A stretch of 64,000 nt of DNA from an uncultured Candidatus Bathyarchaeia archaeon (GTDB lineage Archaea; Thermoproteota; Bathyarchaeia; TCS64), in assembly GCA_964589605.1 (NCBI GenBank), contig CAZPRN010000003.1:135733-199732 (forward strand). The letters are read 5' to 3'. The translations under genes and the position numbers were made by a program. Of this stretch, positions 34,009 to 53,260 are shown in pieces (positions within the stretch are counted from its first letter, which is position 1; the number at the start of each line of letters is the position of its first letter). The notes beneath the pieces were generated by a model that ran no database searches, was not told the origin of the DNA, and saw only the letters and a list, made by a program, of their open reading frames with translations.

Positions 34009-34313
34009 CGTTCCCTCGTAGGATAGCGGGTGATATTACCGCATGATTGGCAAGTGACTGCTATGTGTGTCTCCCTTCGCTGCTTGAGCCGGGTGTGGCT
34101 ATTGAAGCCCTGGACTAGCACGATGTCGCATTTCCGGCAGATACCTCTCCTGATCTCAGCTGGTAGGTGGGTTCTGGTCCGTTGGGCGATGCGGCGCAGT
34201 AGCTGGATGTACCGTTTTGCCCTCTCTGGGTCTACTTGCACGGTCTCTTGAGCTACCCTGTAGAGGGTTTCTATCCTCTGCAACGCGATTTTCCGGGTAT
34301 TGTGCCTCGACAT
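34005..34313 (-). CDS. rnp4: RNase P protein component 4 (Rpp21/Rnp4)
   Basis: IALQRIETLYRVA, then ICRKCDIVL..VTCQSCGNITRYP zinc ribbon. The MSRHN start was chosen. Confidence 0.8.
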   Translation of the reverse strand: MSRHNTRKIALQRIETLYRVAQETVQVDPERAKRYIQLLRRIAQRTRTHLPAEIRRGICRKCDIVLVQGFNSHTRLKQRRETHIAVTCQSCGNITRYPTRER

Positions 34314-34384
34314 GCGGTCCCTGCCTTTGGTTTGATGGATAGTGGAATGTTTATAAGAGTATAGCAAGTAATTGTGAAAGGCGT

Positions 34385-34462
34385 AGCGGGGTAGGGCAGC
34401 CAGGTTAGCCCGTGGGGCTCATAACCCCAAGGTCGGTAGTTCAAATCTACCCCCCGCTACCA
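34385..34462 (+). tRNA. tRNA-Met (CAU), initiator type, with encoded CCA
   Basis: AGCGGGG acceptor stem (A1:U72), GGG/CCC at the base of the anticodon stem, CTCATAA loop and GGTAG-TTCAAAT-CTACC T-arm. Confidence 0.9.
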
Positions 34463-34463
34463 T
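34447..34463 (+). repeat. attL-like direct repeat (tRNA 3' end)
   Basis: CTACCCCCCGCTACCAT, identical to 49250-49266. Confidence 0.85.
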
Positions 34464-34540
34464 CTTAAACACTTGAATTAAGCCGTTTTTAGGCTTGTTT
34501 TCGCTATTAATTCGATATTATTCCGCTATAGAAAGAGCGT

Positions 34541-36193
34541 TTGGAAGAGGTTTTAATTCTACGTTTGAACTCGCAAGCTTCTTTAGAAGCTGTTGTTTTT
34601 GATTATTTAATGGCTCCATGGCATCCAACTCAGAATAAGATATTAGCGGTACTTGGCGATGGTATCCCCAAAACCTCTAGCGAAATTGGACAATTAGCTG
34701 GACTTAGTAGACCATCTGTTTGGAATGCTTTGAAGAGATGTTGGGAAAACGGCTCAGTTTTGCGCTCTGAAAAGCCGTTTTTTGAGAGTGCGAAGAAGTT
34801 TAGGGGAAGGAAAGGTTATCGGAAGAACACCAGGGGTTATTACAAGTATGTACGCAACTTGAAAATGGTAAATAGTATTACACTCGATGGTGCGAGATAT
34901 GTTGCCTACTCTGAAAATCATGTTGATCCTAGGAGTGCTAGAGAGGAGAGCAAAGCCCAACAGATCTTGAAATTCTTAAAAGAGCATCCGGACCAGGCAT
35001 ATTTCTCGAAAGACATTCATGAGTCTTTGAAGGAAAATGGAGTCAAAATGACTGACATTATGCCCACTATTCGCAGATATGACAGTTTAATCTATGTCCG
35101 GGGTTATCGTTCTGAGGACAGGCAAACTCCATTCAGAGAAGGCTATCTACTAACTTGGCTTAATCAAGACTTGCCAAGAGAGAACGCAATACAGGAAGCG
35201 ATAGAGAGAACGGAAAAAGAATTACTGAATAGAAGCACGACCAATCCGGTTATTGAAAGAGTGCATGCGATTAGGGACAGGGTAATTGAGTCGTCAAAGC
35301 TCAGGGAGCTTATCGGTATTTCTTTCTTACAAGGTGAATTGGGACTCACGAAATATGAAATCGAGAACGCGGTTGATAGGGCGATTCAACTCTATCCTGA
35401 TATCAGACAGACGAAGTTGTTTGGCGCTTACAGGTATTTCTACCATAATTCATTGAGCGAAGAGGATTATAATGCAGCTATTGTTATGAAGGAGAATTAC
35501 ATTCGCAAAGTCAAAGGTAGAGCAAATCGTATTGGGCATAATTGGGAGGCTGTTCCTGAGTGGTTTATTGACACTTTTACTACTGGTGCCAGGTTCTGGA
35601 CTCAGGAACATAGAGGAAACAGGATGGACCCAAGAAGGATTACGATTCATCTGATTAAACCAGTTGGAAATCGTAGACGAAATGCTGAGGTTGACAGGGT
35701 TTGGGAAGTAACGCCTGGTGTTTTTGCTCAGCCTATTACATATGTGCTTGAATGTAAATGGGGTTTGGTTAGAAAACGTGATGTAGACGATTTCTTTGAA
35801 GTTTTACGGTGGAGTAAGGATTTTGGAGTAGATACACCCAAGGGAAGACAAGTTAGACAGGGAATAATTGGTGTATTTGCTGGCCAGTCTTTTGATACAA
35901 GGGAAAATGTTAGGCTTGAGGATGGTAGTTCAATAAATTTGCCATCTTATGCTCAGAGAATGAACATCCAATTACTCAAAGCAGTGGACTTTAACCAGAG
36001 ACTACGAGATAAAGGCGTACCTCAATATGTTACAGTTCAGAAAATATGTCGGGCCTCAAAAGACGAAGCAGATGTTAGAGATGCACTGGAGAAGATTTGG
36101 GAGAAGCCAGAAGAAGGTCGAGAGATTCTAGCAGATACAATCAGTCGAAATCAAGAAGTATATGAATTTGAACAGATGTTGGAAACGAAATAG
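34541..36193 (+). CDS. Multi-wHTH protein with C-terminal PD-(D/E)xK (restriction-endonuclease-like) domain
   Basis: wHTH-like KTSSEIGQLAGLSRPSVWNALKR and ILKFLKEHPDQAYFSKDIHESL. The C-terminus has EVDRVWEV...YVLECKWG (D..ExK). Confidence 0.65.
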   Translation: MEEVLILRLNSQASLEAVVFDYLMAPWHPTQNKILAVLGDGIPKTSSEIGQLAGLSRPSVWNALKRCWENGSVLRSEKPFFESAKKFRGRKGYRKNTRGYYKYVRNLKMVNSITLDGARYVAYSENHVDPRSAREESKAQQILKFLKEHPDQAYFSKDIHESLKENGVKMTDIMPTIRRYDSLIYVRGYRSEDRQTPFREGYLLTWLNQDLPRENAIQEAIERTEKELLNRSTTNPVIERVHAIRDRVIESSKLRELIGISFLQGELGLTKYEIENAVDRAIQLYPDIRQTKLFGAYRYFYHNSLSEEDYNAAIVMKENYIRKVKGRANRIGHNWEAVPEWFIDTFTTGARFWTQEHRGNRMDPRRITIHLIKPVGNRRRNAEVDRVWEVTPGVFAQPITYVLECKWGLVRKRDVDDFFEVLRWSKDFGVDTPKGRQVRQGIIGVFAGQSFDTRENVRLEDGSSINLPSYAQRMNIQLLKAVDFNQRLRDKGVPQYVTVQKICRASKDEADVRDALEKIWEKPEEGREILADTISRNQEVYEFEQMLETK

Positions 36194-36222
36194 TGAATCA
36201 ATTTGAGAAAAATGAAATGTGT

Positions 36223-38037
36223 TTATGTTATTTTAACACTATTTTCTAAAATACTCAGGACATCACTAATATCATTTAATACATAGTCTGGCTCCACGTT
36301 AGATTCTTCTTTCCAAACATGCCCATACTTAGCATGTGCTGTAGTAAATCCAGATTTTTTAGCAGGTTCAACATCTCTAGTAAGTGAATCTCCAATTACA
36401 AGAATCTGTTTTTCTGTTAAATCTGGAATATCTTTTTTGAGTTTTCTAAATGCAAATCTGATAGGTAAACCACCAGATTTGGGGCAACCTGTTGTGTTAA
36501 ACCCTATTAAAAATTTGAAATATTTCTCGATCCCCATCGCCATAAGGCGTTGATATGCCTTTGTGTTCGGTGCGTCTGTAACAATTGCTAAGAATATTCC
36601 TATTTTTTCTAACTCTTGTAATGTATTTTCAACATTTGGGTATGGTACAAGATTTTTCGCTTTCAATAACCGGGTTTCATCTAGTACAACAAGCCTCTTT
36701 AGTTGATTCGTTTCGGGCCAATCAGATACTTCATCAAATATCTTCTGCAAACGATCTGTTATATCGGCACGACCATGTGTGTGAACTATACTCAGGTTTC
36801 TATGATCTCTTAACCGGTCAGAAAGAGTCCCATGAGGATCGAAAATAACAACCTCAACATCTTTCTCAAGTGCTTCTTTAACGAGTATTAAGGAAAAAAA
36901 CGATTTTCCTGTTCGTGTTTTCCCAAATATAATGGCGTGACTCGTAAGTATGTCCAAAGGAAAATAGATACGAGATTTAGTAACTTTCTTTTTCACAACA
37001 GAACGAATGACATATCCCAAGAATGCGCTTTTAGGACCATCAATGGATACCTCCTTGGTTGGAATATGGATTCTTTCTTCGATAGTTTCCTCAGTTGGGA
37101 GGTTTAGCGCGGTGGTGAACATTTTCCTTAGGCCGATTCCGATGTCTTTATCGGATTTGAATCCCGCTGCATCTGTAGCTAAAGCTAGACCAAAATACTT
37201 CTTATGTTCTGGAAAAAATGGATACAACTCAGGATTAAAAACAATAACTGGGTCTTTGACATCCGAACAACTCACAAAATAAGTCTTTGAGATCTCCATT
37301 TTCGCGCTGTATTTTCTTCTCTTGATCTCATCAACACAATCGCGGAGATTATCTTTTGGAGTTGTGTAAACATAGAAGAAAAGAGCAGCTGCAAACAATT
37401 TTTCCTTAATAATAAAATACGGTTTCAAATAATCCTGCATCTGGGATTCCAAGGTTTTTACTGAGTTCATGAATTTTCGTGCATAATCTTCCTCTTCTTT
37501 CATTTGTTTTGGGAGAAACTTTGGAAATGGACCACCAAATGTCCCTTGTTGGCCCTTCAAATCTCGTTTAACTTTTTCAGCTTTGTTTTTATGAAACTCG
37601 AAGTTTCGATTAGCCCAATTTCTGCGCCCTTCTAACTTTTCTGGAATATCAGATTCTAAGGTAAATGGTAGATCACTTGTAGTAACTAACACCGCTTTAA
37701 ACAAAGGAGTCCTTGAAAGATGATCTAGGATTCCAGATACTGCACGCCATTGAATGTCTTTTTCAAAACTAAGTCCAAATCTTCTAATGTAGCTCTCTCT
37801 ATTCGTGACCTCTTTCGCGGCCAAGCAAGCTATACCTACATACTTTCCGTCTCTGTGAAGCACACCAATACCGTTTTTCTCGTCCCAATATTGAATGAGA
37901 TTAGAAGAATATTTCACAAGACCTGGAATTACCTCTGCGCCCCTCTGTGTGTGCCCGCCCCAGCTCCCTTCTCCGTACCTCTGTTCAAAGGCCCATCTTT
38001 TCCACTTATTATAGTCATCATAATGGTCCTCAGCCAT
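36223..38037 (-). CDS. 604-aa protein: unknown N-terminal region + P-loop segment + HAD-like C-terminal domain
   Basis: FGKTRTGKSFFSL (Walker A) and VVIFDPHGT (HerA/DUF87-like). Then VVLDETR followed by LAIVTDAP, ..PKSG.. and VIGDSLTRDV (HAD motifs II-IV). Confidence 0.65.
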   Translation of the reverse strand: MAEDHYDDYNKWKRWAFEQRYGEGSWGGHTQRGAEVIPGLVKYSSNLIQYWDEKNGIGVLHRDGKYVGIACLAAKEVTNRESYIRRFGLSFEKDIQWRAVSGILDHLSRTPLFKAVLVTTSDLPFTLESDIPEKLEGRRNWANRNFEFHKNKAEKVKRDLKGQQGTFGGPFPKFLPKQMKEEEDYARKFMNSVKTLESQMQDYLKPYFIIKEKLFAAALFFYVYTTPKDNLRDCVDEIKRRKYSAKMEISKTYFVSCSDVKDPVIVFNPELYPFFPEHKKYFGLALATDAAGFKSDKDIGIGLRKMFTTALNLPTEETIEERIHIPTKEVSIDGPKSAFLGYVIRSVVKKKVTKSRIYFPLDILTSHAIIFGKTRTGKSFFSLILVKEALEKDVEVVIFDPHGTLSDRLRDHRNLSIVHTHGRADITDRLQKIFDEVSDWPETNQLKRLVVLDETRLLKAKNLVPYPNVENTLQELEKIGIFLAIVTDAPNTKAYQRLMAMGIEKYFKFLIGFNTTGCPKSGGLPIRFAFRKLKKDIPDLTEKQILVIGDSLTRDVEPAKKSGFTTAHAKYGHVWKEESNVEPDYVLNDISDVLSILENSVKIT

Positions 38038-38232
38038 AAAATCACGATCTTGAGGTCCTATTGTACAAAAAAGCCTGCGTTTCGAGTGAGAGACAGGAAA
38101 GTGAGATGAACTATATTACGGAATATCATCATTCATTCTCTTTTTTCCTGAACCTTTTTCCCAATACCCCCTTTTCCTTTTCATTCATAGAAAAAGGTTC
38201 TAAAATGGAAACAGATCATCGTCTTCATCTTC

Positions 38233-38388
38233 CTAGTGGTCTTGGGTTCCGTCACCGGTGTTCTCCCAGACATCTACAACATGGCCACATTTCTCACAGA
38301 GGCCTAATCCATTATTCCAAAGTATTTTCCAGGCATCAAAACCTTTGTCGCTTCTATATTCTTTGCATTTTATACAAAATCCTCTCAT
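38233..38388 (-). CDS. Small 4-Cys zinc-ribbon protein (51 aa, below the ORF-track cutoff)
   Basis: Manual translation gives MRGFCIKCKEYRSDKGFDAWKILWNNGLGLCEKCGHVVDVWENTGDGTQDH with CxxC..CxxC. It is divergent from orc1/cdc6. Confidence 0.4.
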   Translation of the reverse strand: MRGFCIKCKEYRSDKGFDAWKILWNNGLGLCEKCGHVVDVWENTGDGTQDH

Positions 38389-38436
38389 GATACTGATTCT
38401 ACCTTCTCTAACGGAATAAGGTCACGAACAGACAGG

Positions 38437-38460
38437 ATTCCGTTATATATTCCGTTATAT
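38437..38460 (+). repeat. Perfect tandem 2 x 12 bp ATTCCGTTATAT upstream of orc1/cdc6
   Basis: Read directly. An inverted related copy TAACGGAATA lies at 38409-38418 and ATATTACGGAATAT at 38113-38126. Confidence 0.85.
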
Positions 38461-38515
38461 ATCGGAGAACTGCGCTTCAATAACATTCTTTTTAATATAA
38501 AGTCTAAAGTAAAAT

Positions 38516-39481
38516 ATGTGTGCAGACACAACGATAATCGTAGACTCGGACGCTTTTGTTAAAGCAACGTCTCCAAGAAAATTACGTCATAGAGACAAGG
38601 AGAGATCCGAATTATTATCGGGAATGAGAAATTTCGCAAATACTATTCTGGTTGGGGAGTATGGTTCTGGAAAAACGGTTCTGATAAAAACAGTTATGAA
38701 AGAATACAATGATCTCCGAGAAGGCCGGGCAGTCTACATAAACTGCGCAATCTACAGGACCACATACAGTATATTAAAAGAAGTCTTGCCAAAAGGGGAC
38801 CTCATAGTTTATCGAAGTAACTATGAGTTAATTCGAGAACTAAGGAAATACATCAAGGGAAATAAGACCGTCATTGTCCTTGATAATTTCGATCAACTCA
38901 AAGACATGAATCTAATTTCCAGGTTTATGAGTCTAGGAGTCTGTGTTTTCCTACTAACAGACAGTGAGGAGGGTCTTGCTGGGTTGGATACGAATATTCG
39001 TTCCAATATTTCGACGACCTTGGTATTACCAAAATATACTGTAGATCAGACTTTAGATATTCTCAAAACAGTAGCCAGCAAAGCCCTATCAAAGGTTAGT
39101 TTTACTAACGAAATACTCGAAGAGATAGCGAAGAAGACAGAGGGTAATGTAACCTTGGCTCTCAACGTTTTGAAAGCTGCTGCAATGAAGGCTGAGAGTG
39201 AGAAACAGGGGAAAATTGAGAAAAATGACATCAAAGTCGAAGAAGATATTCCTGTAAATGTGTTGAATATTGATCAAAAAATAATAATCGATCTAATGAG
39301 AGAGTGGAAACATCTTCCAGCGAGTCGATTATATCAACTGTATTTGGAAAGAATCACTCATCCTAAAGGGGAAAGGGCGTTCCGAAACTATGTCCATGAG
39401 CTATGTATCAAAGGGGTATTGAAAGCAATTGGAGATAAGAAAGGAAGATTCTACGAGTATATTGAAGATGAAGTAGAGTAA
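38516..39481 (+). CDS. Orc1/Cdc6-family AAA+ initiator-like protein
   Basis: LVGEYGSGKT (Walker A), VIVLDNFDQL (Walker B), YINCAIYRTTYSIL and a C-terminal wHTH (HELCIKGVLKAIGDKKGRFYEY). Confidence 0.8.
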   Translation: MCADTTIIVDSDAFVKATSPRKLRHRDKERSELLSGMRNFANTILVGEYGSGKTVLIKTVMKEYNDLREGRAVYINCAIYRTTYSILKEVLPKGDLIVYRSNYELIRELRKYIKGNKTVIVLDNFDQLKDMNLISRFMSLGVCVFLLTDSEEGLAGLDTNIRSNISTTLVLPKYTVDQTLDILKTVASKALSKVSFTNEILEEIAKKTEGNVTLALNVLKAAAMKAESEKQGKIEKNDIKVEEDIPVNVLNIDQKIIIDLMREWKHLPASRLYQLYLERITHPKGERAFRNYVHELCIKGVLKAIGDKKGRFYEYIEDEVE

Positions 39482-39540
39482 TTTTTACTAATTCGATTAA
39501 CATGAAATTCAGAAAAAGTTAGACTGATTTATCTCTAAAT

Positions 39541-40680
39541 TTATACTTGTTGAACAGTTTCGGTTACAAATGTGTTTGTGGTGTTACAGTTTTGTCCTAC
39601 CCTTTTTTCTAACTTCAAATCAATACGTAAACCACACTGATAACAAAATCTTGATCCAGGTACATTTTCAGAATCACATTTTGGACAAATAATAGGTATT
39701 AACATGTTTTTACGAGTCTTTTCAACAGGTTTTTTTCCAGTTAATATACTATGAGCCTCATCAACGTCAGCTTCCTCCATATGAAAGTAGAATTTTGGCA
39801 TATCAGAATCTTCTGTCCATCCAGCAGTCTTTAATAACAACGGATAGGGCAATTGATTTTTCAGCGGATCAATTCGAGAATGCCGGATTAGATATGGCCA
39901 TACATTTTTCTTTATCCCCGCTCGCTTAGCACTTTCCTTAATTATTCCCCTTGCCGATGAATATGCCAATCGTTTTACCTTTTTTTTATTTAATACTGTC
40001 CAAAGTGGTGCATCAGGGTTGTCGGGATCTGGATGATATTCAAGCCAAGAGGTTAACAAAGGTGTAGATATCACAATTCTTGCTGGTGCTCTACCCACCT
40101 TTCCATCAACGTTTAATCGTACTCCCATTTCATCAAACTCTAAATCACCGATGTTCAAGTTTAGAATTTCACCAAATCGTCTCACAGACTCATAATAAAC
40201 CCAAATAAAGGCTCTATCTCTTGGATGTCTAGTGTGCTTGGCCATTTGTTCTATGTCTTCAACAGTTAGAAGGTCTTTTTTACGGATTCTACTTTTGACG
40301 GAACGCTTTACTTTTATCCATTTTACTTGCGCGGGATAGCCGTCCTCACATTCATGAAACCACTTGAAAAAACGTTTTATAACAAGCCTAAAATCTCGTT
40401 TTGTCCATTCCGAATAGGTACTGTTCTCAATGGATGCAATAAAATCAATAACATCTTCCTTTGTAACGTTAGAGAAATCTTTTCCTAATTTCCTTGAAAT
40501 GATCCTGAGGGTTGTTAGATATTTAATTTGTCTAGCAATCCCTACACCCTGTGCAATTATTTCTCGGTGGAATCTAAGAACAGTAACTCGATTCGCTTCA
40601 ACTGTTATTTTTGTATTTACATTTTTAATTTCATTTTCCAATCTTCTTGGATAATTATATACTTCGATGGCATTGTTCAT
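39541..40680 (-). CDS. Tyrosine recombinase/integrase with C-terminal zinc ribbon
   Basis: RDRAFIWVYYESVRRFGEILNL (Arg I), YLIRHSRI (HxxR), PKFYFH (Tyr). C-terminal CPKCDSEN..FCYQCG. The gene is uninterrupted. Confidence 0.8.
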   Translation of the reverse strand: MNNAIEVYNYPRRLENEIKNVNTKITVEANRVTVLRFHREIIAQGVGIARQIKYLTTLRIISRKLGKDFSNVTKEDVIDFIASIENSTYSEWTKRDFRLVIKRFFKWFHECEDGYPAQVKWIKVKRSVKSRIRKKDLLTVEDIEQMAKHTRHPRDRAFIWVYYESVRRFGEILNLNIGDLEFDEMGVRLNVDGKVGRAPARIVISTPLLTSWLEYHPDPDNPDAPLWTVLNKKKVKRLAYSSARGIIKESAKRAGIKKNVWPYLIRHSRIDPLKNQLPYPLLLKTAGWTEDSDMPKFYFHMEEADVDEAHSILTGKKPVEKTRKNMLIPIICPKCDSENVPGSRFCYQCGLRIDLKLEKRVGQNCNTTNTFVTETVQQV

Positions 40681-40735
40681 TTAAACACTTTAATTAATTT
40701 AAAGTTCAGAGGAAAATTCGTCACGGAGAGATGGA

Positions 40736-40780
40736 ATTCCATTATTCCATAAGCTGCCTCTTTTTTCGGAATAATGGAAT
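40736..40780. repeat. 13-bp perfect inverted repeat ATTCCATTATTCC / GGAATAATGGAAT with a 19-bp spacer, upstream of the integrase
   Basis: Read directly. It overlaps a 12-bp palindrome ATGGAATTCCAT at 40731-40742. More TTCCATT copies lie at about 40880, 40911 and 40933 (the last inverted). Confidence 0.85.
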
Positions 40781-41018
40781 TAACGGCAAAATTGCCCCTC
40801 GCTAAAATTTATCTTAACTGGCTGTGGGCTTTACGACGCGGTACTAATGCTCCCGGCGAGAGCTTAGTTTCAAAATAAGTTCCATTGGATGCGCACACAC
40901 GCACGTACCGTTCCATTATTTCTTCCAAACTTAATGGAAATATCGGAATCTAGTATTTTATTGATTTAGATAGTAGAATAGATCCATTCCAGTAGATCAA
41001 TTTCTATATTTTTGTACA

Positions 41019-41360
41019 TCAAATGAGTTTGACTTCGTTATTAACGATGAATATTGAAACGTCCATTTTTTCAAGGGGGAATGTAATTTGTTCAACGTAT
41101 CGTTCATATGATTTTGTGACTGCTAAAGCATACTTCTTATTATCACTTCCATCCATCGTTCGCATTAATTGGAAAATGGCGGTACCTAAATCAACGGAAA
41201 GAGCCTTTGTATCACCTTTCATTTCGATTATTAGTTGAATCCCATTTCGTTCCGCAATTATATCCGGCCCTCTCTGATGCCCGATACTTTTCGAAATAAT
41301 TCGATAACCATTAGAATTTAGATATTTTATCATTGGATCAAACATTTCATTTTCTTTCAA
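41019..41360 (-). CDS. Small PD-(D/E)xK nuclease, Hjc-like (Holliday junction resolvase-like)
   Basis: ..NGYRIISKS..GPDIIAERNGIQLIIEMKG closely parallels the Hjc core (..PDIIA..NG....IEMKS). Confidence 0.5.
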   Translation of the reverse strand: MKENEMFDPMIKYLNSNGYRIISKSIGHQRGPDIIAERNGIQLIIEMKGDTKALSVDLGTAIFQLMRTMDGSDNKKYALAVTKSYERYVEQITFPLEKMDVSIFIVNNEVKLI

Positions 41361-41436
41361 ATGAATTACCTTGTGCTAAGAATATAGATTCGAAGCTGAA
41401 AAATATAATATCTACCGCATTATTTTCTTAATAATC

Positions 41437-43464
41437 TCAGGCTTTCACCACTGAAATCCCGTTGTTTTTCTCAACTCGATAGATATGGTCTGCAAAGCTC
41501 TCTAATTCCCTTTCATGAGAAACTAGAATCACTTGTGGGCATTTGAGTTCGTTTAGTATATCTCTAACTTTGTAAAGTTGTTCCTTGCTAAATCCGTCAG
41601 TAGGTTCGTCCAAAATTAACAAGTTTGACTTCATTCCAGAGGATACTTTCTGGACAAGACTGTTCAAAGATAACCTATATGCCAGAGCGACGCTTGTTTT
41701 CTCTCCACCACTGAGATACTGAAGGTCCTGTTCGTACCCATCTTGTTCAACAATTGGTGTAAAGTCCTCATCAATCCTAGCATCTTTGGTTGTGTCCTCT
41801 ACTAATATTCCAAACCATTCTCTGAATTTTTCGTTGAACTCTTCATTAATACTGGCAAGAACACTGGTTTCAATTAAGGATATAGTGGGAATGAAATACT
41901 CTCGAATCCAAACAACATACTCATAAAGTTTTTCCGATTGCAGTTTCTTCTTTTTCTTTGTTTCAATTGTCTTAACTAACTCTACTAAAAATTGTTCAGA
42001 CTTGTTTATACTTTCTCTGAGTGCAGAGAGGTCACCTGATATCTTTTTAATAGATGCTTCTTTCTTTTTGTCCTGACCCATTAAATTCTTTATTTCCAGT
42101 TCTAATTCCTTAAGCTGTTCGTGCTTTTTCTTGGCTCCTTTCACGAAGCTTTTATCATCTTTTACTTGCACACCTAGTTCCTTAATCCGTTTTTTTGACT
42201 CAGTGATGCTATCTTGATGACCTCCAAATTGTTTTTCAAGTTTCTCCAAGTCTTCCTGAGCTTTCTCGTAATCTTTAAGTTTCTTCAGGAGCTCGTTTGC
42301 GTTCTTCTTGCTTTCTTCGAGGGCTTTTAATTCGGTCTCAAGCTTCTTTTTTTCTGATTCCTTACTTTTAACCTTGTCTTTGAATTCCTTTGGATCGGCG
42401 GGTCTATCACATGTAGGACAGGTTCCTTTCTCTTCAACGGTTTTATATTCCTCAATTTTACCATCCAAAGCGCCCTCTCGTCTTCGAAGTTTTCTATCCT
42501 CTTTGTCTATTTCTTTTATTTCAGAATCAATATCATGAGTGGTCTTTTCTGTTGGCTTTGTAATTTTCTTTAAATTATCTATCTCTATTTTGGCTTTATC
42601 AGCTTCTTTCTCAGTCTCCTCCACAACCTTATCAAGTCGGTCAATCTCTTTTTCATTAACTGTGATTTGCTTCTCGATAACAGGTATCTTCCCAGCCACT
42701 TCAGTTAGTTGTAATCTTTTTTGTCTCTTTTTCTCTATATCTGCCTGAATTTTCTCACGCTCTTTTGATTCGTCTTTTTCCTTTTTTTCAAGGGGTAAAA
42801 TTCTTTTCTTATCTTTTGTTATTTCCTTCGCTGAATCAATTTTCTTTGTTTCGTCTTCTTTTAATCCACCAGAAGCTCCCTTGAACTCTATAGCCTTCTT
42901 TTCAATCTCTTTGTAAAGTAAGGAGGCATTATCTGCTGTGATTTTGTAATCCTCAATTCTGAACGCTTTTCTAAGAGTCTGAAGTCGCTTTTCTGCATTT
43001 TCAGATATGATTGATTTCATTTCTTCTTGGGGAGTGAATATTGCATAAGTGAAAATCACACTTTTAGCACGAGGTGCTGTTGGTTCGTTAAAATTTAAAA
43101 TGTCCAAGATTTTTGGCTTCAACTCAGAAGGTGATAGTGGAAGTTTACCTTGAGAATCAGTAATATAACAACCATTGCTTGATTGAGAAACTCTGGTCCT
43201 TGCTCTTTTCAGTCTTCTTTGAACTTCATATTTTTCTCCGTCAACTGAAAAACCAAGCCTCACAATTCCATCTTTTTCACCTGTCCTCATTAGAGAATTG
43301 CCTTTAATCCCCCCAAGACCAAATAGCGCAAACTCAATGGCCATTAGTATAGTTGACTTGCCTGAACCGATATCACCTTCAAATAATGAGGTACCAGTCT
43401 GAAAATCTAATTCTAGTTCTTGGTAGCTTCTAATATTTTTCAGATATAGTGAGTTTAAGATCAT
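41437..43464 (-). CDS. rad50: Rad50/SbcC-type SMC ATPase (675 aa)
   Basis: GDIGSGKSTIL Walker A, long Lys/Glu-rich coiled coil, central CPTCDRP zinc hook, LSGGEKTSVALAYRL signature, LLILDEPTDG Walker B and VSHE. Confidence 0.9.
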   Translation of the reverse strand: MILNSLYLKNIRSYQELELDFQTGTSLFEGDIGSGKSTILMAIEFALFGLGGIKGNSLMRTGEKDGIVRLGFSVDGEKYEVQRRLKRARTRVSQSSNGCYITDSQGKLPLSPSELKPKILDILNFNEPTAPRAKSVIFTYAIFTPQEEMKSIISENAEKRLQTLRKAFRIEDYKITADNASLLYKEIEKKAIEFKGASGGLKEDETKKIDSAKEITKDKKRILPLEKKEKDESKEREKIQADIEKKRQKRLQLTEVAGKIPVIEKQITVNEKEIDRLDKVVEETEKEADKAKIEIDNLKKITKPTEKTTHDIDSEIKEIDKEDRKLRRREGALDGKIEEYKTVEEKGTCPTCDRPADPKEFKDKVKSKESEKKKLETELKALEESKKNANELLKKLKDYEKAQEDLEKLEKQFGGHQDSITESKKRIKELGVQVKDDKSFVKGAKKKHEQLKELELEIKNLMGQDKKKEASIKKISGDLSALRESINKSEQFLVELVKTIETKKKKKLQSEKLYEYVVWIREYFIPTISLIETSVLASINEEFNEKFREWFGILVEDTTKDARIDEDFTPIVEQDGYEQDLQYLSGGEKTSVALAYRLSLNSLVQKVSSGMKSNLLILDEPTDGFSKEQLYKVRDILNELKCPQVILVSHERELESFADHIYRVEKNNGISVVKA

Positions 43465-44723
43465 GAGAACACCTCATTCAATCCGAGTGATTCAAGTGCC
43501 TCTTCTAATAATCGAGTTGTGTAATCACCTTTTTTCTCATCAATCTTTATGTTTTGTCTAAGTGTTCCAAGTAATTTTTCGGCAACTTTTGCTCCTTTAT
43601 CTCCCTTAAGGTCCTTGACGGATACCGTAATATTTCCAATGTTTTCTCGTAAAAGTTTCTTCTCAATTGAAGGCACATCTTCACCCGAAACTTTCACGGC
43701 CTCAAATTCCTTCGAAGACAAACCATATTTATTAACATCAACAAACTGTGCGCCGTTTGTAAGGAGCATGTTCTTAAAGTTCCAAGTTTTTATTTCAGAG
43801 GTTTTACCACCTGAAAGTTCTCCTTTAATTTTAAGTAGAACAATTTTATCTTGAACGTCCAACTCACCGAGCTTTTTCTCAATTTCACCATTAGCTTTGA
43901 TAGAGTTTTTCCCTAATACATCGAATTCAATATACTTTAGCTTCTCCGGTCCGAATAGCTCAATGAATTTTGTGTTTTTCACCTTATCATCAAAATCAAC
44001 AATGTAAAATCCCCGTTTTTCACCTTTGGCTGTTTGTTCAAGGTCTCTTGCATAACCACTGAAAATGGGTCCAGGGAATACTATTTTGTCATATCCAGGT
44101 AATTTCTCTTCAACTCGTTGATGGATGTGCCCACCTGCATAATAATCAAATCCTTTAGGTAAGAATGAAACAGGAATTGAGTCCATAGCTGCCAAGTGAG
44201 GTGGTTTGAATTCAGTCAGACCCGCGTGAAAACAAAAGATTTTGAACCCATCCTCATTCTCTAAAGTCTCCCTGTCAAGTATCTCAAAATACGCTTTTTC
44301 TACTCCACCTTTCCTGGCGTTGATCCCAACTAATTTTGCCTTAGTTTTTTGGTCAACTACAAAATCAAGGGCGATTTTTCCTCCTTCTGCGTCTCTCCCC
44401 TGTACAACATTTTTGATTAGACCTGCGCTCTCTAGAATATTGATTATCGAGTCCGAGTTCGGATTATAATCATGACTGCCAAATATTACATAAATAGGAA
44501 TCCCGTTATCATGAACTTCTTTGAACTTCTTCACACAGTTATTCACTACACCCATGTCTGGGATTCCAATATGGAATATGTCTCCAGAAATCAGGATAAA
44601 ATCGACCTTTTCTTCAATACATCGTCCCAGAGCATCGTTAAATTTCTCACGTTCTATTATCTCAAGTGAAGGGTGTCGATTTGCCCCAAGGTGTAGGTCT
44701 GCCAAATGAGCGAATTTGAACAT
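43461..44723 (-). CDS. mre11: Mre11/SbcD-type nuclease
   Basis: FAHLADLHLG, SGDIFH, FGSHD, FCFHAG and GGHIHQ phosphoesterase motifs. ATGA overlap with rad50. Confidence 0.85.
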   Translation of the reverse strand: MFKFAHLADLHLGANRHPSLEIIEREKFNDALGRCIEEKVDFILISGDIFHIGIPDMGVVNNCVKKFKEVHDNGIPIYVIFGSHDYNPNSDSIINILESAGLIKNVVQGRDAEGGKIALDFVVDQKTKAKLVGINARKGGVEKAYFEILDRETLENEDGFKIFCFHAGLTEFKPPHLAAMDSIPVSFLPKGFDYYAGGHIHQRVEEKLPGYDKIVFPGPIFSGYARDLEQTAKGEKRGFYIVDFDDKVKNTKFIELFGPEKLKYIEFDVLGKNSIKANGEIEKKLGELDVQDKIVLLKIKGELSGGKTSEIKTWNFKNMLLTNGAQFVDVNKYGLSSKEFEAVKVSGEDVPSIEKKLLRENIGNITVSVKDLKGDKGAKVAEKLLGTLRQNIKIDEKKGDYTTRLLEEALESLGLNEVFS

Positions 44724-44728
44724 TTATT

Positions 44729-46255
44729 TTACCTCATTATCACTTTTTCAGCTTTTTTTTCTGTGCCTATAGACTCTCCAATATAATCCTCAAACTTGGG
44801 AATATGCACGGGAACAGCAAATTTGGTGAAGGTGCTACTTACAATGGCCTCACCTTTGTCTAAGCTAGCAATTGCCCGATCATCACTTGATAGGTCTTGA
44901 CATGCGCTATCAATAACTGCTTTTCGTTCTGCAGCCATTTCGTTTCCAAGGATTATTTTTGTATTTAGGTTTGCTAGTACTTCTCTTGGTATTAGACTTG
45001 TCAATTGAGTAATTGCTATTATGCCAACTTTGAACTTTCTACCCTCTCTAGCAATTGTATTATAGATGTTGTCACCAGCTACCAGAGATTCTGAGCCAAG
45101 TACTCTTGGTGCTTCTTCGATTACGACTGATACAATTGGCTTATCTTGAAGAGTTCCTTCCGATTTATAATTCTGATATCTCCAAAAAATGTTACCCGCT
45201 ATCATGCTACCGATTAGTAGTTCAGCTTGATCCATTAACCGTGAAGTATCAATGATTACAGTTTTACCAGATTCAAGTGCTCGAACGATATCTGCAATTG
45301 TTGTGGAACCCGCAGTTGCACTAAATACTAGATTTCTGCAAATTAGCTCACCGTCTTTGATGTAAATACCCAGTACACTATTGAATTTTCTCTGAAGAAC
45401 CTGTAAAGTAATCGGTCTTACCGAATCTATCACAGCTCCGCGAACAATATTCTCAATCCATTCATTGCCAAATTCAGAATAGTAAACGGACAACGCATCT
45501 TTTTGTGCAGGAGTGAACTGGATTAGATCGGTCAGATTACCAGGTAAAATTGAGTTAAGATTTATAACAAGTGTATTCCCGCCTTGTGGAGGTGAAGGAG
45601 AATAATATATTACATTCTCTTTTGCCTCTGGGTGGTCTTTTAGACCTATACTATGTCTGCCATAATATTCATCATGGGGGTCTAAAACTAGAATACCAAA
45701 TTTGCTACTTGGGAGTGAGCTCCAAAGCATTACCTTGACAAGGTTGCTCTTTCCTCTCCCTGTTGTTGCTGGAATGAGGACATGATGTCTAAGCATATCT
45801 TCACCGTTAAGATAAACAGGAACTTCGAGAGTCTTTGAGCCGCTACGTACATCTCCTAAATAAATGGGGTCAGATGGTTTAGTTAAAAATGCAAGATCAT
45901 CTTTGCTTATTGTTTGAACAGAGCTAAAGAAAGGTGGGAGTATTTTTGGCATTTTTGGTTTATTATTTTGAATGGTTAAGACGGCTTTAACAGATGCAAT
46001 GATGTAATTTCTTAAAGCGGGGTCCATGAAATCTAAATCCCCGGTAAATCCTTCGAGTTTCATTCCCGATATCATTTCAAGCTGTTTAGATCCAATTTGA
46101 CTCCCAAACTTTAGGTCATAGACCTGTAGAATAGAATAACTAGTTTCATCATGATCAACCCTTAGAAGGTCTCCCATTTCGATACTTGATCCACTTTTCT
46201 GTCTGATTATAATCTGACCATGAGAGCCAGCTATTACGGTTCCAATTACATCCAT
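44729..46255 (-). CDS. herA: HerA-type hexameric helicase/translocase
   Basis: N-terminal barrel ([15 protein letters not shown]), [13 protein letters not shown] Walker [13 protein letters not shown] Walker B and IAITQLTS. Confidence 0.85.
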
Positions 46256-46257
46256 TT

Positions 46258-47412
46258 TTAATCACCCATTAATTTGTTTAAGAAATCGTGTGCATCTGTC
46301 GTTTTCAGGCATTTTTTAAGACGATCAAGAACACCTGAACTACTAGCACATGAAAGGAATTGTAGATTTTGGCCCATTTTTTCAGAGCCAGTCACTCTAG
46401 CGAACTTGTCTGCATCTATCAAACCATATGGATAACCTGGAAAAGCAGGGTCACTTGCGTTTTTAGAAAGCGAACAAATATACTTTTCAATTTCAGGATT
46501 ACCCTTTTTCAATGCTTGTTCCTTTAGGAACTCCAAACGGAATACATAGTCTGAACTTGGATGAAGTCTTACTGCGTACATTTCAGCACGATGATCTGGT
46601 TGTTCTATGTTTACTATAGGATGATAATACCATGCATCTTTTTCAAGACCAGTCTCCGTGACTAATTCTGCGATTGCAGCAAGAAGCGGATATCCAGTTG
46701 TAGTAAACAACGTTGATGTTTTTGATAACCCAACAAGTAATACGTCTTTTTCCATGGCCTTAGCCATTACTTCATTTGAATAGATTCTTTCATTAGTAAC
46801 GGTTGTCTGAAGAGTGCCATCACGGATTACTGCATCTCCTTCATCCATTTCATAATCTATCATCAAACCAGCTACCTTCCATTCAGCAAACTTTCTTGAT
46901 GTCTCAGCAATTCTACCAATAGGAATTCTAAAAGACCCGCTCATCAGGGTTGGGTCAAATGAGTAGAATTTTAAATCTTTTACATCGGGTAGATAACCGG
47001 CCCATTCCGGTTTTATTGGCACTAATTCAGTCTCATAAAATATTTGACCATTTTCTGCTGTTGCATAGCATATCGTGTAAAATTCAATTCTTTGTGGAAG
47101 ATGACGGGGGTTCAACCTAACACCATCTCTAAAAATGTTAAAGAAGACTCTTGTAAGATGAACAGAGATATTTGATGATTCGTAAATAGGGGCATTTCCA
47201 CCATCCACATAGCCAAATTTGTTTCTAGATTCCATCTTTTTGATTAATTGAAAATGATCCTTTGAGAACTCATGCGGAGTATACCTATCGTCAGCGAAAC
47301 TCGGTTGACCAATTGGCATCTGAGTTATTTTTTCACTTAATCTGTCAATGACTCTTTGGATAGGTAGCATCCTAGGAACCTCCATCTCTATTTCTTTTTT
47401 AACTTTCAACAT
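46258..47412 (-). CDS. nurA: NurA-type 5'-3' nuclease
   Basis: GYVDGGN, VIRDGTL and LVGLSKTS motifs typical of NurA. 2-nt gap to herA. Confidence 0.7.
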
Positions 47413-47642
47413 TCAAAAACTTATCCGATGACTGGAACATTACCTTTAGTGCCATTACTCCTGCTGTAAGATTCTCTACCAAATTCTGAGATACAACTAG
47501 ATGTAACGATAATTTATGTTTTGGTATATCAGAGTCTAATGGTTGAATATGTTAATTTAATAGTATCAGATACTTCCAGACATATTCCTTTTAGACTATA
47601 AACTTACAAATTATTATCATAGCTTTTGATGGGTGAGTAAAA

Positions 47643-49190
47643 GTGGCGTTGAAAAATATATCGAGTAAATCTCAGCTTACACCAATTGGGAAATTGGACC
47701 AATGCCCGCACTGTGATACTAATTTAGATAAAATTCCAAAACGTAAGAAAAAATGCCCTCATTGTGGAGATTATATTTTTGTCAGGACAAGACCTCTTGA
47801 TAGAAAAAAAGTGCTAGTTACAGAAAAACAGAAAAGCGATGTAGAACGGGAATGGAACAGGTATTACGAAGAAAAGGAATATTCTCAATTATTACAAGAC
47901 GAGGAATATCAAAAAGAGAAAAAAAGCCTTTTTTCAGAATTGGGAAGAGACCCTACGCTAGCTGAATTGAAAACTAGTGTTCTGGAAAATCAAATGTTAG
48001 AATACACCTCAAAAAGACAATGGGGATTGTATAGAAATTGTATTTTAGAGATTTCTGAGACTTTAAAAAAGGAAGGAAAACTAGAAGAAGCGCTAAATTC
48101 ATTCTTTCAGGTCTGTTATCTTGATGTTAATGGCGCTAACAATGTAATGACAACAAACGGAAAAGCAATGTCATATACAAAGTCTGAAAAAATGGGAATC
48201 TTGGATTTTGATACAAAGTTTGCTTTCTTTGCACCTGCGATTATAACTTACATTAGAAATTTGATTTCTGAAATAAATCTGTCTGAGGATGAGGCTAGAA
48301 CATTATTTATCAAAACGAATGAAAAGTCAAAACCTATTGAAAAAATGCCTGTAAGTCCTGATGATGCATGGGTTCAATTAAAATCAAAAATTGAGGACGA
48401 TAAAAAAATTGACGCTTTTGACGTTTCAAACCAGACTCAAGTAATCAAGGAAATTGATACATTAATTAAACAAAATAAAATGAATGATCTAAAAAAACTA
48501 TTACTGAAAGTTAGATCCCTTTACAAATCAAAAAAATACAAGATTGAAAATGTTGACGAGGTAAAATCATTCATCATTAATTTAATGGATTCAAAAAACA
48601 GAAACATATCCCATCAGGGAGAAACCCTAATGTTAACAGTGCTTAAGAAAGATGAAATAAAATTCAAAAGCTTAGCGAGTCATTATGTAACGAAATTCAA
48701 AAATGACTTTTCCGAACAAATCGAATCACACACAATTGGCCAATTAGGAGCCATAAATGTTGAATTAATTAAACCACTAATACCACTCTTAAAAGAAACC
48801 ATTAGAAATTCTAAAGAATGGAATACAAGACGATTTGCCGCGTTTAACCTAGGTCGAATTGCAGAAAAACAACCTGATCTAGTAGGCGATATAATTCCCG
48901 TGATGATTGACTACATAAAGAATCCATTTGAAGTAACTATCCGGGATCCAGTAAAGATCGAGACATCAATTGGAACAATAAGTTGGGATATGTCGGTTGA
49001 AAAAATGATGGGGGTAGACCAAAAACAATGGTTGAAAGATGCATACATAGACACTCTTGGAATGTTTGCGAAGGGGGATAAACAATTGATATTTTCATAT
49101 CGCTCTTTGATTGAGATAATTGCCAAAAGTGATAAAAGTGAATATTCTCGAAAAAAAGCACAAAAAGTACTTGATCTCTTAGATAAATAA
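47643..49190 (+). CDS. Zinc-ribbon + alpha-helical (HEAT-like) repeat protein, unknown function
   Basis: CPHCDT..(x12)..CPHCGDY at the N-terminus. The C-terminus EWNTRRFAAFNLGRIAEKQPDLVGDIIPVMIDYIKNP is HEAT-like. Confidence 0.6.
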   Translation: MALKNISSKSQLTPIGKLDQCPHCDTNLDKIPKRKKKCPHCGDYIFVRTRPLDRKKVLVTEKQKSDVEREWNRYYEEKEYSQLLQDEEYQKEKKSLFSELGRDPTLAELKTSVLENQMLEYTSKRQWGLYRNCILEISETLKKEGKLEEALNSFFQVCYLDVNGANNVMTTNGKAMSYTKSEKMGILDFDTKFAFFAPAIITYIRNLISEINLSEDEARTLFIKTNEKSKPIEKMPVSPDDAWVQLKSKIEDDKKIDAFDVSNQTQVIKEIDTLIKQNKMNDLKKLLLKVRSLYKSKKYKIENVDEVKSFIINLMDSKNRNISHQGETLMLTVLKKDEIKFKSLASHYVTKFKNDFSEQIESHTIGQLGAINVELIKPLIPLLKETIRNSKEWNTRRFAAFNLGRIAEKQPDLVGDIIPVMIDYIKNPFEVTIRDPVKIETSIGTISWDMSVEKMMGVDQKQWLKDAYIDTLGMFAKGDKQLIFSYRSLIEIIAKSDKSEYSRKKAQKVLDLLDK

Positions 49191-49249
49191 TAAGTTGTTA
49201 TCGCAAACATGTTAATTTTGAACTTGAGAGTCTAAACGAGAGTATAGAC

Positions 49250-49266
49250 CTACCCCCCGCTACCAT
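49250..49266 (+). repeat. attR-like direct repeat
   Basis: CTACCCCCCGCTACCAT, identical to the tRNA-iMet 3' end at 34447-34463. Confidence 0.85.
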
Positions 49267-49704
49267 TTCTATAAAAACAAGCGAGGGTTCAATTTCGATC
49301 CCCAGTATATCGATAGCTTAATTGAGTTATTAACACCGTCTTTTTGAAATTAATTTGAACAGCGGTCTGTACAATAGAAGTTGCCATAGATTTCATGAGA
49401 GCAGTGTCCATTTTGTCCAGCATGTCCAGTATTGGTATTCTATATACAAATTTACTTATTTTCATATTGGGTATATGGACCCTGGACATCTGGGACATAA
49501 AGGACACTCCTTGGTTTCTAACTCCATTTGTTAACAAGTCACTGGTTTTGATACTCAAATCTCATTCTACGTCTATTATACTTCTTCTTATGATTCACAT
49601 CTGATGTTCCAAATCGCGCTCGCGTTGTCAGATATTTAGTTCTATGGAATTAGGACATACAGACTTATGTTGACCTTTACGTGACCTTTAATCGTGGATA
49701 AAAG

Positions 49705-50289
49705 ATGAAAATCTCCTTGAAGGGTATCATACTCTTCCTCATCCTCACAGGATTTATACTACGAATAATGAGTTTAGCCTGGACCTCCCCTTTCCACCTA
49801 ATACGAGAATATGAGACACCATTCATCATTCAAGGTTTCATCATCGTGCTGATTCTCCTAGGATCTATACTCCTCGTTCGTCTCCTTCCTAGGGAATTTT
49901 TTGAGAAAACACGGAAAAAATACTCTATTACCCGTATTTTCACAGTTGGAGAGAAGACACTCGCAGTTATCTGGGTATTTACATTGGTATTATCACTATT
50001 CTCACCCATGATTGCTGGAATCTACAGATTTCTCATCATAGTTTTCCTCGCGATGGTAGGAGTTCCCTTCATGTGGTACGTCCTACGAGAGGAGAAAAGT
50101 GGGGACCAAGGTGAAATCGGTATTTACCCAGATACTGTTACGCGGATTCACCCGGACGACTTGGACGACTACTACAGGTATCAATCAGTTTTCACACCGG
50201 ATTATGATGATTACCTAATGAGACTCAAAGAAAAACATGACAAAAGAAAAAAACAACTATCGAAAGAAGACGACGAAAACGAACTATAA
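49705..50289 (+). CDS. Membrane protein (4-5 TM helices) with acidic/basic C-terminal tail
   Basis: Hydrophobic helices, then DDLDDYYRY..KEKHDKRKKQLSKEDDENEL. It lies in still-AT-rich DNA beyond attR. Confidence 0.5.
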   Translation: MKISLKGIILFLILTGFILRIMSLAWTSPFHLIREYETPFIIQGFIIVLILLGSILLVRLLPREFFEKTRKKYSITRIFTVGEKTLAVIWVFTLVLSLFSPMIAGIYRFLIIVFLAMVGVPFMWYVLREEKSGDQGEIGIYPDTVTRIHPDDLDDYYRYQSVFTPDYDDYLMRLKEKHDKRKKQLSKEDDENEL

Positions 50290-50600
50290 CGTTCAATATC
50301 ACATCATTTAGGGATCTCCATGAAGCAGGAGCGTATAGTCGGCAATACTATATGGAGTAGAAGGAGGGAATCATCGCTAATATGCAGATTATCGGTTCCA
50401 ACGAAATGATTGAACAGCACTAATTAGTGTCAGAGAACAACAAAACCAAATCATAGCTGCTACCGTGCAGTTTCTCGAGTCGATTGGGTGACATAATTCT
50501 TCCAAAAAATGTATTTAGGTATTCATAAGTATTGGACCAGGTCTGCCTTTAATTTAATATTAACCCCCCATTGAACACCATCCACCCAAGTTTACTCTAC

Positions 50601-52151: not shown

Positions 52152-52216
52152 TGTCCAAACCCTACTGTATTTTGGAGGGATTATATATTTCAAGTAGTGG
52201 GGGCCATCTGAATGAG

Positions 52217-53182: not shown

Positions 53183-53260
53183 GAGTAGAACTCTAGTCAA
53201 CGGTATTAGTAAATTGGCTCCCGGGTAGCTGTTTAATACCTCACTGAACGAGTTTAGCAT

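Follow-up and report, generated by a model that had tools for sequence, protein, structure and literature searches.

Within a 64-kb window of DNA from an uncultured Candidatus Bathyarchaeia archaeon (positions 135,733 to 199,732 of contig CAZPRN010000003.1, assembly GCA_964589605.1; coordinates below count from the window's first letter unless a related contig is named), the gene for an initiator-type tRNA-Met is followed by a long stretch of low-GC DNA that closes with a second copy of the tRNA's 3' end. What is this stretch, how did it come to lie there, and what does it carry? An initial annotation had read it as an AT-rich element integrated into the tRNA gene. Our analysis leads to much the same answer: the region is very probably a cryptic plasmid-like integrated element of foreign origin, consisting of 34464-49249 and its flanking 17-nt cores. 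As such it is ordinary; tRNA-integrated cryptic elements with a classical integrase are already well known in archaea. What is new is the content: a mobile end-resection operon (nurA-herA-mre11-rad50), a clade of zinc-ribbon integrases that crosses phyla, and a family of tRNA-linked winged-helix nucleases (represented here by orf527).

The repeat, the tRNA target and the integrase

The edges of the element, their surroundings and the integrase are as follows:

34385-34462, plus strand: initiator-type tRNA-Met(CAT), the integration target (ARAGORN; Rfam RF00005, 66 bits), with its last 16 nt inside the att core
34447-34463, plus strand: attL core, copy 1 of the 17-nt repeat (repeat search; maximum-likelihood GC break at 34460)
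49250-49266, plus strand: attR core, copy 2 of the 17-nt repeat (repeat search)
49267-53260, no strand: context block outside the element, GC 0.39-0.47 and GC3 (GC at third codon positions) 0.43-0.46, hence intermediate; not syntenic with relatives
39541-40680, minus strand: intact tyrosine integrase, 379 aa (PF00589, E=5e-11, and zinc-ribbon families; XerA alignment)

The direct repeat, CTACCCCCCGCTACCAT, is perfect and occurs at exactly two sites in the window, both on the plus strand. The same two sites, and no others, are recovered when up to two mismatches are tolerated (expected by chance: 0, from 100 shuffles) and when a 12-nt sub-core is searched with one mismatch tolerated. The repeat covers the 3' strand of the T-stem, the 3' strand of the acceptor, A73, CCA and one further base, a placement on which ARAGORN, Rfam and direct reading agree with each other and with the initial annotation. 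The tRNA itself, read from the sequence, has an A1:U72 pair and three G:C pairs in the anticodon stem (G29-31:C39-41), which is the archaeal initiator pattern. A scan of 33000-51000 with Rfam found no RNA besides this tRNA.

Composition changes with the repeat. GC is 0.370 between the copies versus 0.509 on the left side, and GC3 lies at 0.27-0.38 for every gene between them (about 0.30) versus 0.66-0.69 for dph5, ribL and RtcB (about 0.67). The left-flank genes had been named as rnp4, dph5 and ribL, and these identities (Rpr2/rnp4, diphthine synthase and ribL) are borne out. A maximum-likelihood segmentation with two breaks sets the left one at 34460, on attL itself. That the repeat is a chance match in native low-GC DNA is therefore hardly credible: no match was expected, one copy coincides exactly with the tRNA 3' end, the left GC break lies within that copy, and relatives of the host lack the block. 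Nothing speaks for such a coincidence beyond the missing empty site, discussed below.

The integrase gene is uninterrupted, as first proposed. Aligned to P. abyssi XerA (4a8e) and 12 homologs, the protein has R168, K194, Y263-x-x-R266, W288 and Y298; Y263 sits at the His-II position, which gives the tetrad R..YxxR..Y, while more distant members of the family have His at this position. An invariant CxxC...CxxC zinc ribbon follows the catalytic tyrosine at the C-terminus. The open reading frame (ORF) lies 5.1 kb from one att copy and 8.6 kb from the other, and since it is intact and far from both, the enzyme behaves as the non-split (type II, classical) kind, the class that had been suggested for it. 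R..YxxR..Y is the signature given for pNOB8-type integrases (PMC5861418, PMC8371274), and as these are described by She et al. and reviewed in PMC8371274 and PMC5861418, the likeness consists in the tetrad and the unsplit gene alone. Otherwise the two differ: the att core has 17 nt here versus 40-50 bp in pNOB8, the neighbours of the reconstructed attP are orf515 and orf527 whereas the pNOB8 att lies upstream of int, the host is not of the Sulfolobales, the element is not a conjugative plasmid, and its integrase bears a zinc ribbon.

Homologs of the integrase number 70. Among those with a name, the closest comes from a Hodarchaeales metagenome-assembled genome (MAG) and is 72% identical; many are at about 50%, and those of Methanosarcinaceae and Heimdallarchaeota are at 31-36%. 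This zinc-ribbon clade thus links elements of Bathyarchaeia, Asgard archaea (Hodarchaeales) and Methanosarcinales, and points to exchange between phyla. Beyond the family, the most similar integrases (about 30%) belong to archaeal pleomorphic viruses of Geoglobus and Archaeoglobus and to haloarchaeal plasmids.

From this anatomy, integration would have taken place by recombination of an element-borne attP core with the identical stretch at the end of the initiator tRNA-Met gene (its last 16 nt plus one base), presumably catalysed by the element's own tyrosine integrase. The reaction would have regenerated an intact tRNA at attL and left the displaced tRNA 3' end as attR. Because the att copies are perfect and the integrase is intact, excision may still be possible.

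Backbone, related loci and the state of the element

Between the left arm and the integrase, and directly upstream of the latter, lie the other genes of the element's backbone and a set of short repeats:

38516-39481, plus strand: compact Orc1/Cdc6-like AAA+ protein, 321 aa (TIGR02928, E=1e-18; PDB 1fnn Cdc6, E=4e-11)
36223-38037, minus strand: chimeric ORF, 604 aa, with an ATPase part (residues 1 to about 475; 36613-38037) and a HAD part (about 476-604; 36223-36612)
38397-38469, no strand: cluster of short repeats preceding the Orc-like gene, with a 22-nt inverted repeat and ATTCCGTTATAT in 2.2 tandem copies
40681-41018, no strand: intergenic region upstream of int, with four TTCCATTA[TA] copies as two inverted pairs around a GC-richer stretch

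This backbone is not peculiar to the window. Zinc-ribbon integrase, convergent Orc1/Cdc6-like gene and HerA/DUF87-type ATPase make up the backbone of an element family that spans several archaeal phyla: integrase and Orc-like gene recur in the related contigs L013, L014 and L016/17 (our handles for related contigs and loci carry the prefix L), the DUF87 ATPase also in L014 and L016/17, and these contigs have 34-40% GC. The Orc-like orthologs beside int are 45% (L013) and 39% (L016) identical, and the two genes are convergent in L013, L016 and the window. Residues 6-488 of the chimeric ORF are 56% identical to a 546-aa DUF87 ATPase of L016/L017 and 32% to the L014 gene; in phage and plasmid collections the ORF has no relative, its HAD part excepted. 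The Orc-like protein has an AAA+ domain, a Cdc6_lid and a C-terminal winged helix; TIGR02928 covers residues 9-311, with a score lower than the curated cutoff, and the structural matches are PDB 1fnn and 2v1u.

The short repeats are clustered. TTCC[AG]TTA[TA] has six copies in the element where 1.0 would be expected, and every one falls in one of the two intergenic regions on either side of the orc-int pair: in tandem at 38438 and 38450, and as inverted pairs at 40737/40771 and 40911/40931. A repeat similar to the 38397-38469 set, CCGTTTATTCCG(T/A)TA, stands upstream of the L016 Orc-like gene. We consider 40681-41018 a candidate operator or origin-like site on the basis of this repeat layout. 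Replication origins typically contain an AT-rich unwinding element; the stretch between the inverted pairs, by contrast, looks relatively GC-rich.

What kind of element is this? Cryptic integrated elements (CIE) with Cdc6/Orc1 were catalogued in Thaumarchaeota by Krupovic et al. 2019 (PMC6563490), and this is the category that fits. Shared traits are integration in tRNA genes, a tyrosine integrase, short att repeats (there down to 8 bp), a Cdc6/Orc1-type putative replication protein, variable cargo and no virion or conjugation genes (PMC6563490). The window element differs from them in its Bathyarchaeia-like host, its zinc-ribbon integrase, an Orc with a degenerate ATPase site, the tRNA-proximal orf527, and a cargo that includes the full nurA-herA-mre11-rad50 set (Rad50 is unmentioned in PMC6563490). 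An integrated virus, for example a pleolipovirus-like one, was considered as an alternative. The nearest viral integrases are those of the Geoglobus and Archaeoglobus pleomorphic viruses mentioned above, and the Orc-like protein matches (24% identity) the Orc1/Cdc6 of SNJ2, a temperate pleolipovirus of Natrinema (Wang et al. 2018, PMC5861418) that integrates at a tRNA-Met 3' end with a short core (14 bp there) and has an intact classical integrase with an Orc1/Cdc6 gene near int (PMC5861418). However, the SNJ2 integrase has the tetrad R..HxxR..Y and is not among the detectable homologs, and SNJ2 has virion genes. Between the att sites of the window we found no capsid, spike, packaging or conjugation gene (Pfam and PHROGs) and no membrane proteins, and in place of a VirB4/TraG-type ATPase there is just the truncated HerA/DUF87-type one. 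The PHROGs matches are to the integrase, the Orc-like protein, the chimeric ORF (HAD and P-loop parts) and, weakly, a 113-aa ORF, none of them structural; orf527 has no relative in IMG/VR, by single-protein or profile search. We judge the viral reading very improbable.

The same site was then compared among relatives of the host, which were located by a dph5 protein search of genome and metagenome contigs. Eight related loci were found: a Bathyarchaeota MAG, the sole relative in the species-level genome set (dph5 75% identical), and seven metagenome contigs (75-82%). The flank with rnp4-dph5-ribL-riboflavin kinase-RtcB-amidohydrolase is collinear with the window in every one of these loci, as far as the tRNA gene. 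Past tRNA-iMet synteny is lost, with no element gene and nothing from 49267-58000; in the contigs of six relatives the DNA that follows is unrelated, and none of the relatives carries the block without the repeat. In L012 and L022 a sensor histidine kinase gene comes after the tRNA. In L018 the tRNA is followed by a 1.9-kb low-GC insert (7630-9547 of that locus) with one gene, for a 538-aa protein with a spermidine-synthase-like domain; at its far end the insert repeats the tRNA 3' end in degenerate form (TCAAATCTACCCCC-GCTACCA, one C missing), and genes for TFB, a peptidase and a histidine kinase lie downstream. A partial, degenerate core copy (CTACCCCCCG, CTACCGCCC or CTACCGACCCC) stands 4-5 nt past CCA in L012, L020, L021 and L022, and may be the scar of past integration and loss. 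From these differing inserts and partial core copies it follows that tRNA-iMet is a recurrent insertion point in the lineage.

Several observations weigh against an intact, cleanly bounded and autonomous element. The drop in GC noted in the initial annotation is real and begins on attL, but its right edge is not on attR: the second break of the segmentation lies at 50560, 1.3 kb further on. A clean empty site (the tRNA directly followed by the sequence from 49267 onward), a check suggested at the outset, was not found among the eight related loci, and right of the element the sole gene collinear with a relative (L018) is that at 58635-59132. A circular attP junction, sought likewise, was not found in the assembled contigs examined, Logan included. 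As to the genes, the HerA/DUF87-type P-loop ATPase is cut just past Walker B, the homology ending at ...VVLDETRLLKAKNLV in the alignment, and the Orc-like protein, with an intact Walker A, has a degenerate ATPase site (Walker B LDNFD, without Glu; sensor 2 GNVT, without Arg). Truncated ATPase and degenerate Orc-like protein together speak against a currently autonomous replicon.

The right break is blurred, rather than set at the element's end, because older foreign DNA continues beyond attR: the block at 49267-53260, which holds two small ORFs without assigned function (one of them a membrane protein), a serine dehydratase gene and a PEP-mutase-like gene, was probably acquired earlier at this hotspot, and host-like composition resumes at the M20 peptidase gene to its right (GC3 0.67). 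A third, decayed att copy that would mark this older block was sought, and none was found above chance (best: 50745-50760, 4/16 mismatches). Degeneracy of the Orc-like protein is shared by the int-adjacent orthologs (L013 12224-13183 and L016 11514-12488, with LDN/LDH and GNVT/GNIA); L013, L014 and L016 have in addition a second Orc paralog with canonical LDEVD and GDAR, and the window element has none. In the chimera, the HAD phosphatase fragment matches HAD_2 from profile position 45/178 and is without nucleophile motif I, and by its makeup the ATPase-HAD chimera is probably a rearranged, inactive gene. This copy would thus have lost part of its backbone, its ATPase being truncated and HAD-fused and a second canonical Orc1 absent; it may no longer replicate or transfer alone, and may depend on helpers. 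The suggestion that the element has an origin of its own drew on the Orc1/Cdc6-like gene and on repeat-rich intergenic DNA, which the six-copy motif bears out in part; it is still plausible, but weaker for the degenerate ATPase site.

It is quite possible that the region is by now a composite genomic island that has become fixed, assembled at a tRNA hotspot through successive insertions and deletions, in which the repeat is a fossil of the last event and the element immobile. The signs of decay in the chimera and the Orc-like protein, the foreign-looking DNA that runs on to about 53260, the other inserts and partial core copies of the relatives, and a clearly decayed related element (L030, described below, with its int fragment and split herA) all suit such an island. 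Against it stand cores identical at 17/17 positions, an integrase intact with every catalytic residue, and four operon genes without interruption. We see in it a refinement of the integrated element, which is still the best explanation, rather than a replacement.

Two further observations concern the site and its relatives. In Logan contigs L002, L003, L005 and L009-L011, assemblies of the same organism from several samples break in the tRNA on both sides, and one sample, SRR24302423, reads through; this could reflect heterogeneity of the population at the site, or merely shared tRNA k-mers. Contigs that end at 34414-34462 or start at 34430-34434 were considered as evidence of excision and rejected, as shared tRNA k-mers give the same breaks. 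In the related loci L013, L014, L016, L029-L031 and L035, no att pair was found within the 10-21 kb examined of each.

The NurA-HerA-Mre11-Rad50 operon

The nuclease and ATPase genes that had been noticed in the element turn out to be a complete operon at 41437-47412 on the minus strand, in the order nurA-herA-mre11-rad50, its four genes uninterrupted, adjacent and co-oriented:

46258-47412, minus strand: NurA nuclease, 384 aa, first gene of the operon (PF09376, E=2e-8)
44729-46255, minus strand: HerA helicase, 508 aa (PF01935, E=8e-28; S. solfataricus HerA 4d2i, E=2e-20)
43461-44723, minus strand: Mre11-type phosphoesterase, 420 aa (P. furiosus Mre11, PDB 4hd0/1ii7, E=2e-25; NF041029, E=2e-28)
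41437-43464, minus strand: Rad50-like ABC ATPase, 675 aa (PRK03918, E=4e-52; AAA_23, SMC_N, SbcC_Walker_B)

The family assignments are backed by motifs. Read from its translation, the Rad50-like protein has Walker A and B, a short coiled coil, a CPTC zinc hook, an LSGGE signature and an H-loop; Mre11 motifs I-V align to the P. furiosus structure, with GSHD instead of GNHD as motif III; HerA has Walker A and B (aligned to 4d2i); and NurA has 578 homologs, including NCBI-named NurA proteins of Bathyarchaeota and Nitrososphaeria at 48-50% identity. The proteins are diverged members of their families, because all score below the NCBIfam equivalog cutoffs (Rad50 177 bits vs 700, Mre11 100 vs 600, HerA 92 vs 800), and NurA matches no NCBIfam model. 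To judge from uninterrupted frames and motifs, the operon is apparently intact and functional. The Rad50-like protein is also short (675 aa, as against about 880 in reference models), and its homologs in L026 and L030 are likewise short.

Does the operon belong to the element or to the host? The closest relatives (L025-L028) have the same gene order on contigs of 34-36% GC, and since this GC matches the element and not the host, the operon is of low-GC origin. In L025 the identities are 82% for HerA, 74% for NurA and 68% for Mre11; in L026 and L027 all four proteins are at 62-71%. A second, diverged element, L030, lies at a tRNA-His gene: 153 nt past the tRNA it has an orf527 homolog (56%), followed by two small ORFs, a 176-aa fragment that matches the N-terminus of the present integrase family (38%), and then rad50 (56%), mre11 (65%), a split herA (65-74%) and nurA (53%), with order and strands as in the window. 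Two diverged elements at different tRNAs thus share the combination, so that the operon is not a one-off capture but a stable module of this element lineage. In the literature searched, no account of such an operon on a mobile element of archaea came up.

Some neighbours of the related operons were noted in passing. Upstream of the operon of L026 (1600-8100) lies a gene for a 265-aa integrase of Phage_integr_3 type, with an array of 45-55-nt repeats, each before a small ORF (about 140-190 aa), a layout like that of cassettes or a shufflon. In L025 (1494-4970) and L030 (10068-12768) the nurA operon is preceded by a co-oriented gene for a 765-777-aa protein without Pfam family and by a divergent one for a 358-aa HTH_5/TrmB protein; in the window, orf515 takes this place.

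In model hyperthermophilic archaea this operon is regarded as an essential chromosomal repair system. Compared with the archaeal herA-mre11-rad50-nurA end-resection operon of Constantinesco et al. 2004, as represented in PMC9905601, the same four families are adjacent on one strand and keep their catalytic motifs; here, by contrast, the order is nurA-herA-mre11-rad50, Rad50 has 675 aa, the scores fall far under the equivalog cutoffs, and the genes lie inside a mobile element of foreign composition instead of a chromosomal housekeeping locus. Beltran et al. (PMC9905601) put forward HerA-NurA as the machinery that makes single-stranded DNA ready for DNA transfer in archaea, and they also observed that genes for Rad50 and HerA occur next to Ted loci. 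The likeliest role of the operon here would be the processing of DNA ends for recombination-dependent replication or transfer of the element, with extra double-strand-break repair as a possible side benefit to the host. A mobile genome with its own end-processing nuclease and ATPase has a parallel in phages: T4 gp47/gp46 and T5 D13/D12 are homologs of Mre11/Rad50 and serve recombination-dependent replication, in phages that are not integrative and have neither HerA nor NurA. With this element one could test whether mobile DNA of archaea relies on HerA-NurA to ready DNA for replication or transfer, and a complete end-resection operon on a mobile element, found again in the diverged L030, is a concrete vehicle for horizontal spread.

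Might these genes serve defence against viruses instead, in a tRNA-linked island of Lamassu-like or HerA type? The Rad50-like protein is matched over its full length by the PADLOC model for LmuB, PDLC03859 (E=5e-35), the mad3, mad8 and HerA models match too, and other members of the orf527 family stand beside restriction genes (GmrSD in L031, Eco57I/MmeI-like in L035). Yet an LmuA-type effector is missing and PADLOC gives no match for NurA; the partner gene has its motifs I-V aligned with those of P. furiosus Mre11, the ATPase with its CxxC hook scores best against Rad50 models, and these four genes are the ones that make up the archaeal repair operon (PMC9905601). A defence island is on this evidence improbable. 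The Lamassu/MADS reading of the PADLOC matches was rejected as well, the neighbours being of Mre11, HerA and NurA type around what is just an LmuB-model match.

orf527, the tRNA-proximal arm and the other ORFs

At the tRNA-proximal end of the element, between attL and the chimeric ORF, lie:

34464-34609, plus strand: element arm between core and orf527, its sequence and length partly conserved in four other tRNA-orf527 junctions
34610-36193, plus strand: orf527, 527 aa, three tandem winged helices and a PD-(D/E)xK nuclease-like domain

The protein encoded by orf527 has 721 homologs at E<=1e-3; the best 120 have a length of about 530 aa and 54-85% identity, and their hosts are Bathyarchaeota, other Thermoproteota, Freyarchaeota and Hadarchaeales. 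A Pfam scan gave nothing but a weak HTH_24. In the alignment D362...E381-x-K383 is invariant, and in an AlphaFold (AF2) model (pLDDT 77.5) the chain folds into three winged-helix domains together with an alpha/beta domain. Foldseek found likeness at the level of domains only, to TFIIIC tauB, RPC62, FokI and MspJI, with very low TM-scores (0.1-0.2). Our best guess is that orf527 encodes a sequence-specific DNA-binding nuclease that would act at or near the att site or an origin.

The position of the gene is conserved too. In five of five contexts a tRNA on the same strand ends 139-156 nt before it, and at least four different tRNAs occur among them: the distance is 147 nt in the window (34610-36193), 153 nt in L030 (tRNA-His; 1161-2768), 156 nt in L029 (187-1797) and L031 (187-1788), and 139 nt in L035 (an intron-containing tRNA; 10001-11593). 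The L029 and L031 contigs start inside the T-arm/acceptor end of a tRNA, 156 nt ahead of the homolog. We estimate roughly that a co-oriented tRNA stands this close to about 1-2% of genes, and the adjacency is therefore far from chance. orf527 and the arm of about 150 nt thus form a conserved tRNA-proximal end of such elements in all five contexts, and in the present host the gene arrived with the inserted DNA, because the host's relatives have none after tRNA-iMet. A large family, conserved across phyla, unannotated and tied to tRNAs in this way suggests a core function in the biology of these elements.

The arm itself, judged by its place and partial conservation, is a candidate attP arm and/or orf527 promoter. 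A 17-mer, TTAAACACTTGAATTAA / TTAAACACTT(G/T)AATTAA, occurs in it at 34465-34481, just past attL, and again at 40681-40697, directly upstream of the int ATG; two or more matches were obtained in 4 of 100 shuffles, and it could be a shared binding site or mere TATA-like sequence.

Such a position raises the question of whether orf527, and not the integrase or not the integrase alone, sets insertion beside tRNAs by recognising the site and cutting or anchoring there. The fixed distance at four or more tRNAs and the partly conserved spacer would fit, as would the architecture, which resembles FokI in joining several DNA-reading domains to a PD-(D/E)xK domain; the gene occupies the position usual for an integrase gene, and in L029, L031 and L035 no tyrosine integrase was found within the 10-12 kb examined downstream of the homolog. 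On the other hand, tyrosine recombinases classically leave a perfect short direct repeat of a tRNA 3' end, the integrase is intact here, a fragment of the same family persists in L030, and the L031 contig encodes an integrase homolog somewhere; the structural matches, moreover, are at TM 0.1-0.2 and the contexts number five only. We hold a determining role of orf527 to be unlikely, and ascribe the integration to the tyrosine integrase.

Taken further, the loci might represent a widespread, undescribed family of tRNA-associated archaeal elements (in Bathyarchaeia, other Thermoproteota, Asgard archaea and Hadarchaeales) that is defined by the orf527 end and by possession of its own NurA-HerA-Mre11-Rad50. 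This generalisation is rather doubtful. Were it true, orf527 would take part in site choice, in integration and excision, or in origin function; the operon would make DNA ends or single strands for replication or cell-to-cell transfer, as an archaeal stand-in for a relaxosome (compare PMC9905601); and such elements would spread a double-strand-break repair operon horizontally between archaeal phyla.

Two further ORFs lie between the cores:

41019-41360, minus strand: 113-aa ORF, tentatively Hjc/YraN-like (PF01870 Hjc, E=0.005; YraN, E=2e-4; PDB Hjc, E about 0.8)
47643-49190, plus strand: orf515, with an N-terminal zinc ribbon, a domain of about 230 aa and C-terminal HEAT-like repeats

The 113-aa ORF may tentatively be assigned, from these matches, to the PD-(D/E)xK nucleases of Hjc/YraN type. 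For orf515, a Pfam scan of 36 homologs gave no informative family; its N-terminal domain (window 47643-48400, about 250 aa) has 1443 representative relatives at E<=1e-3, which are mostly stand-alone proteins of about 250 aa.

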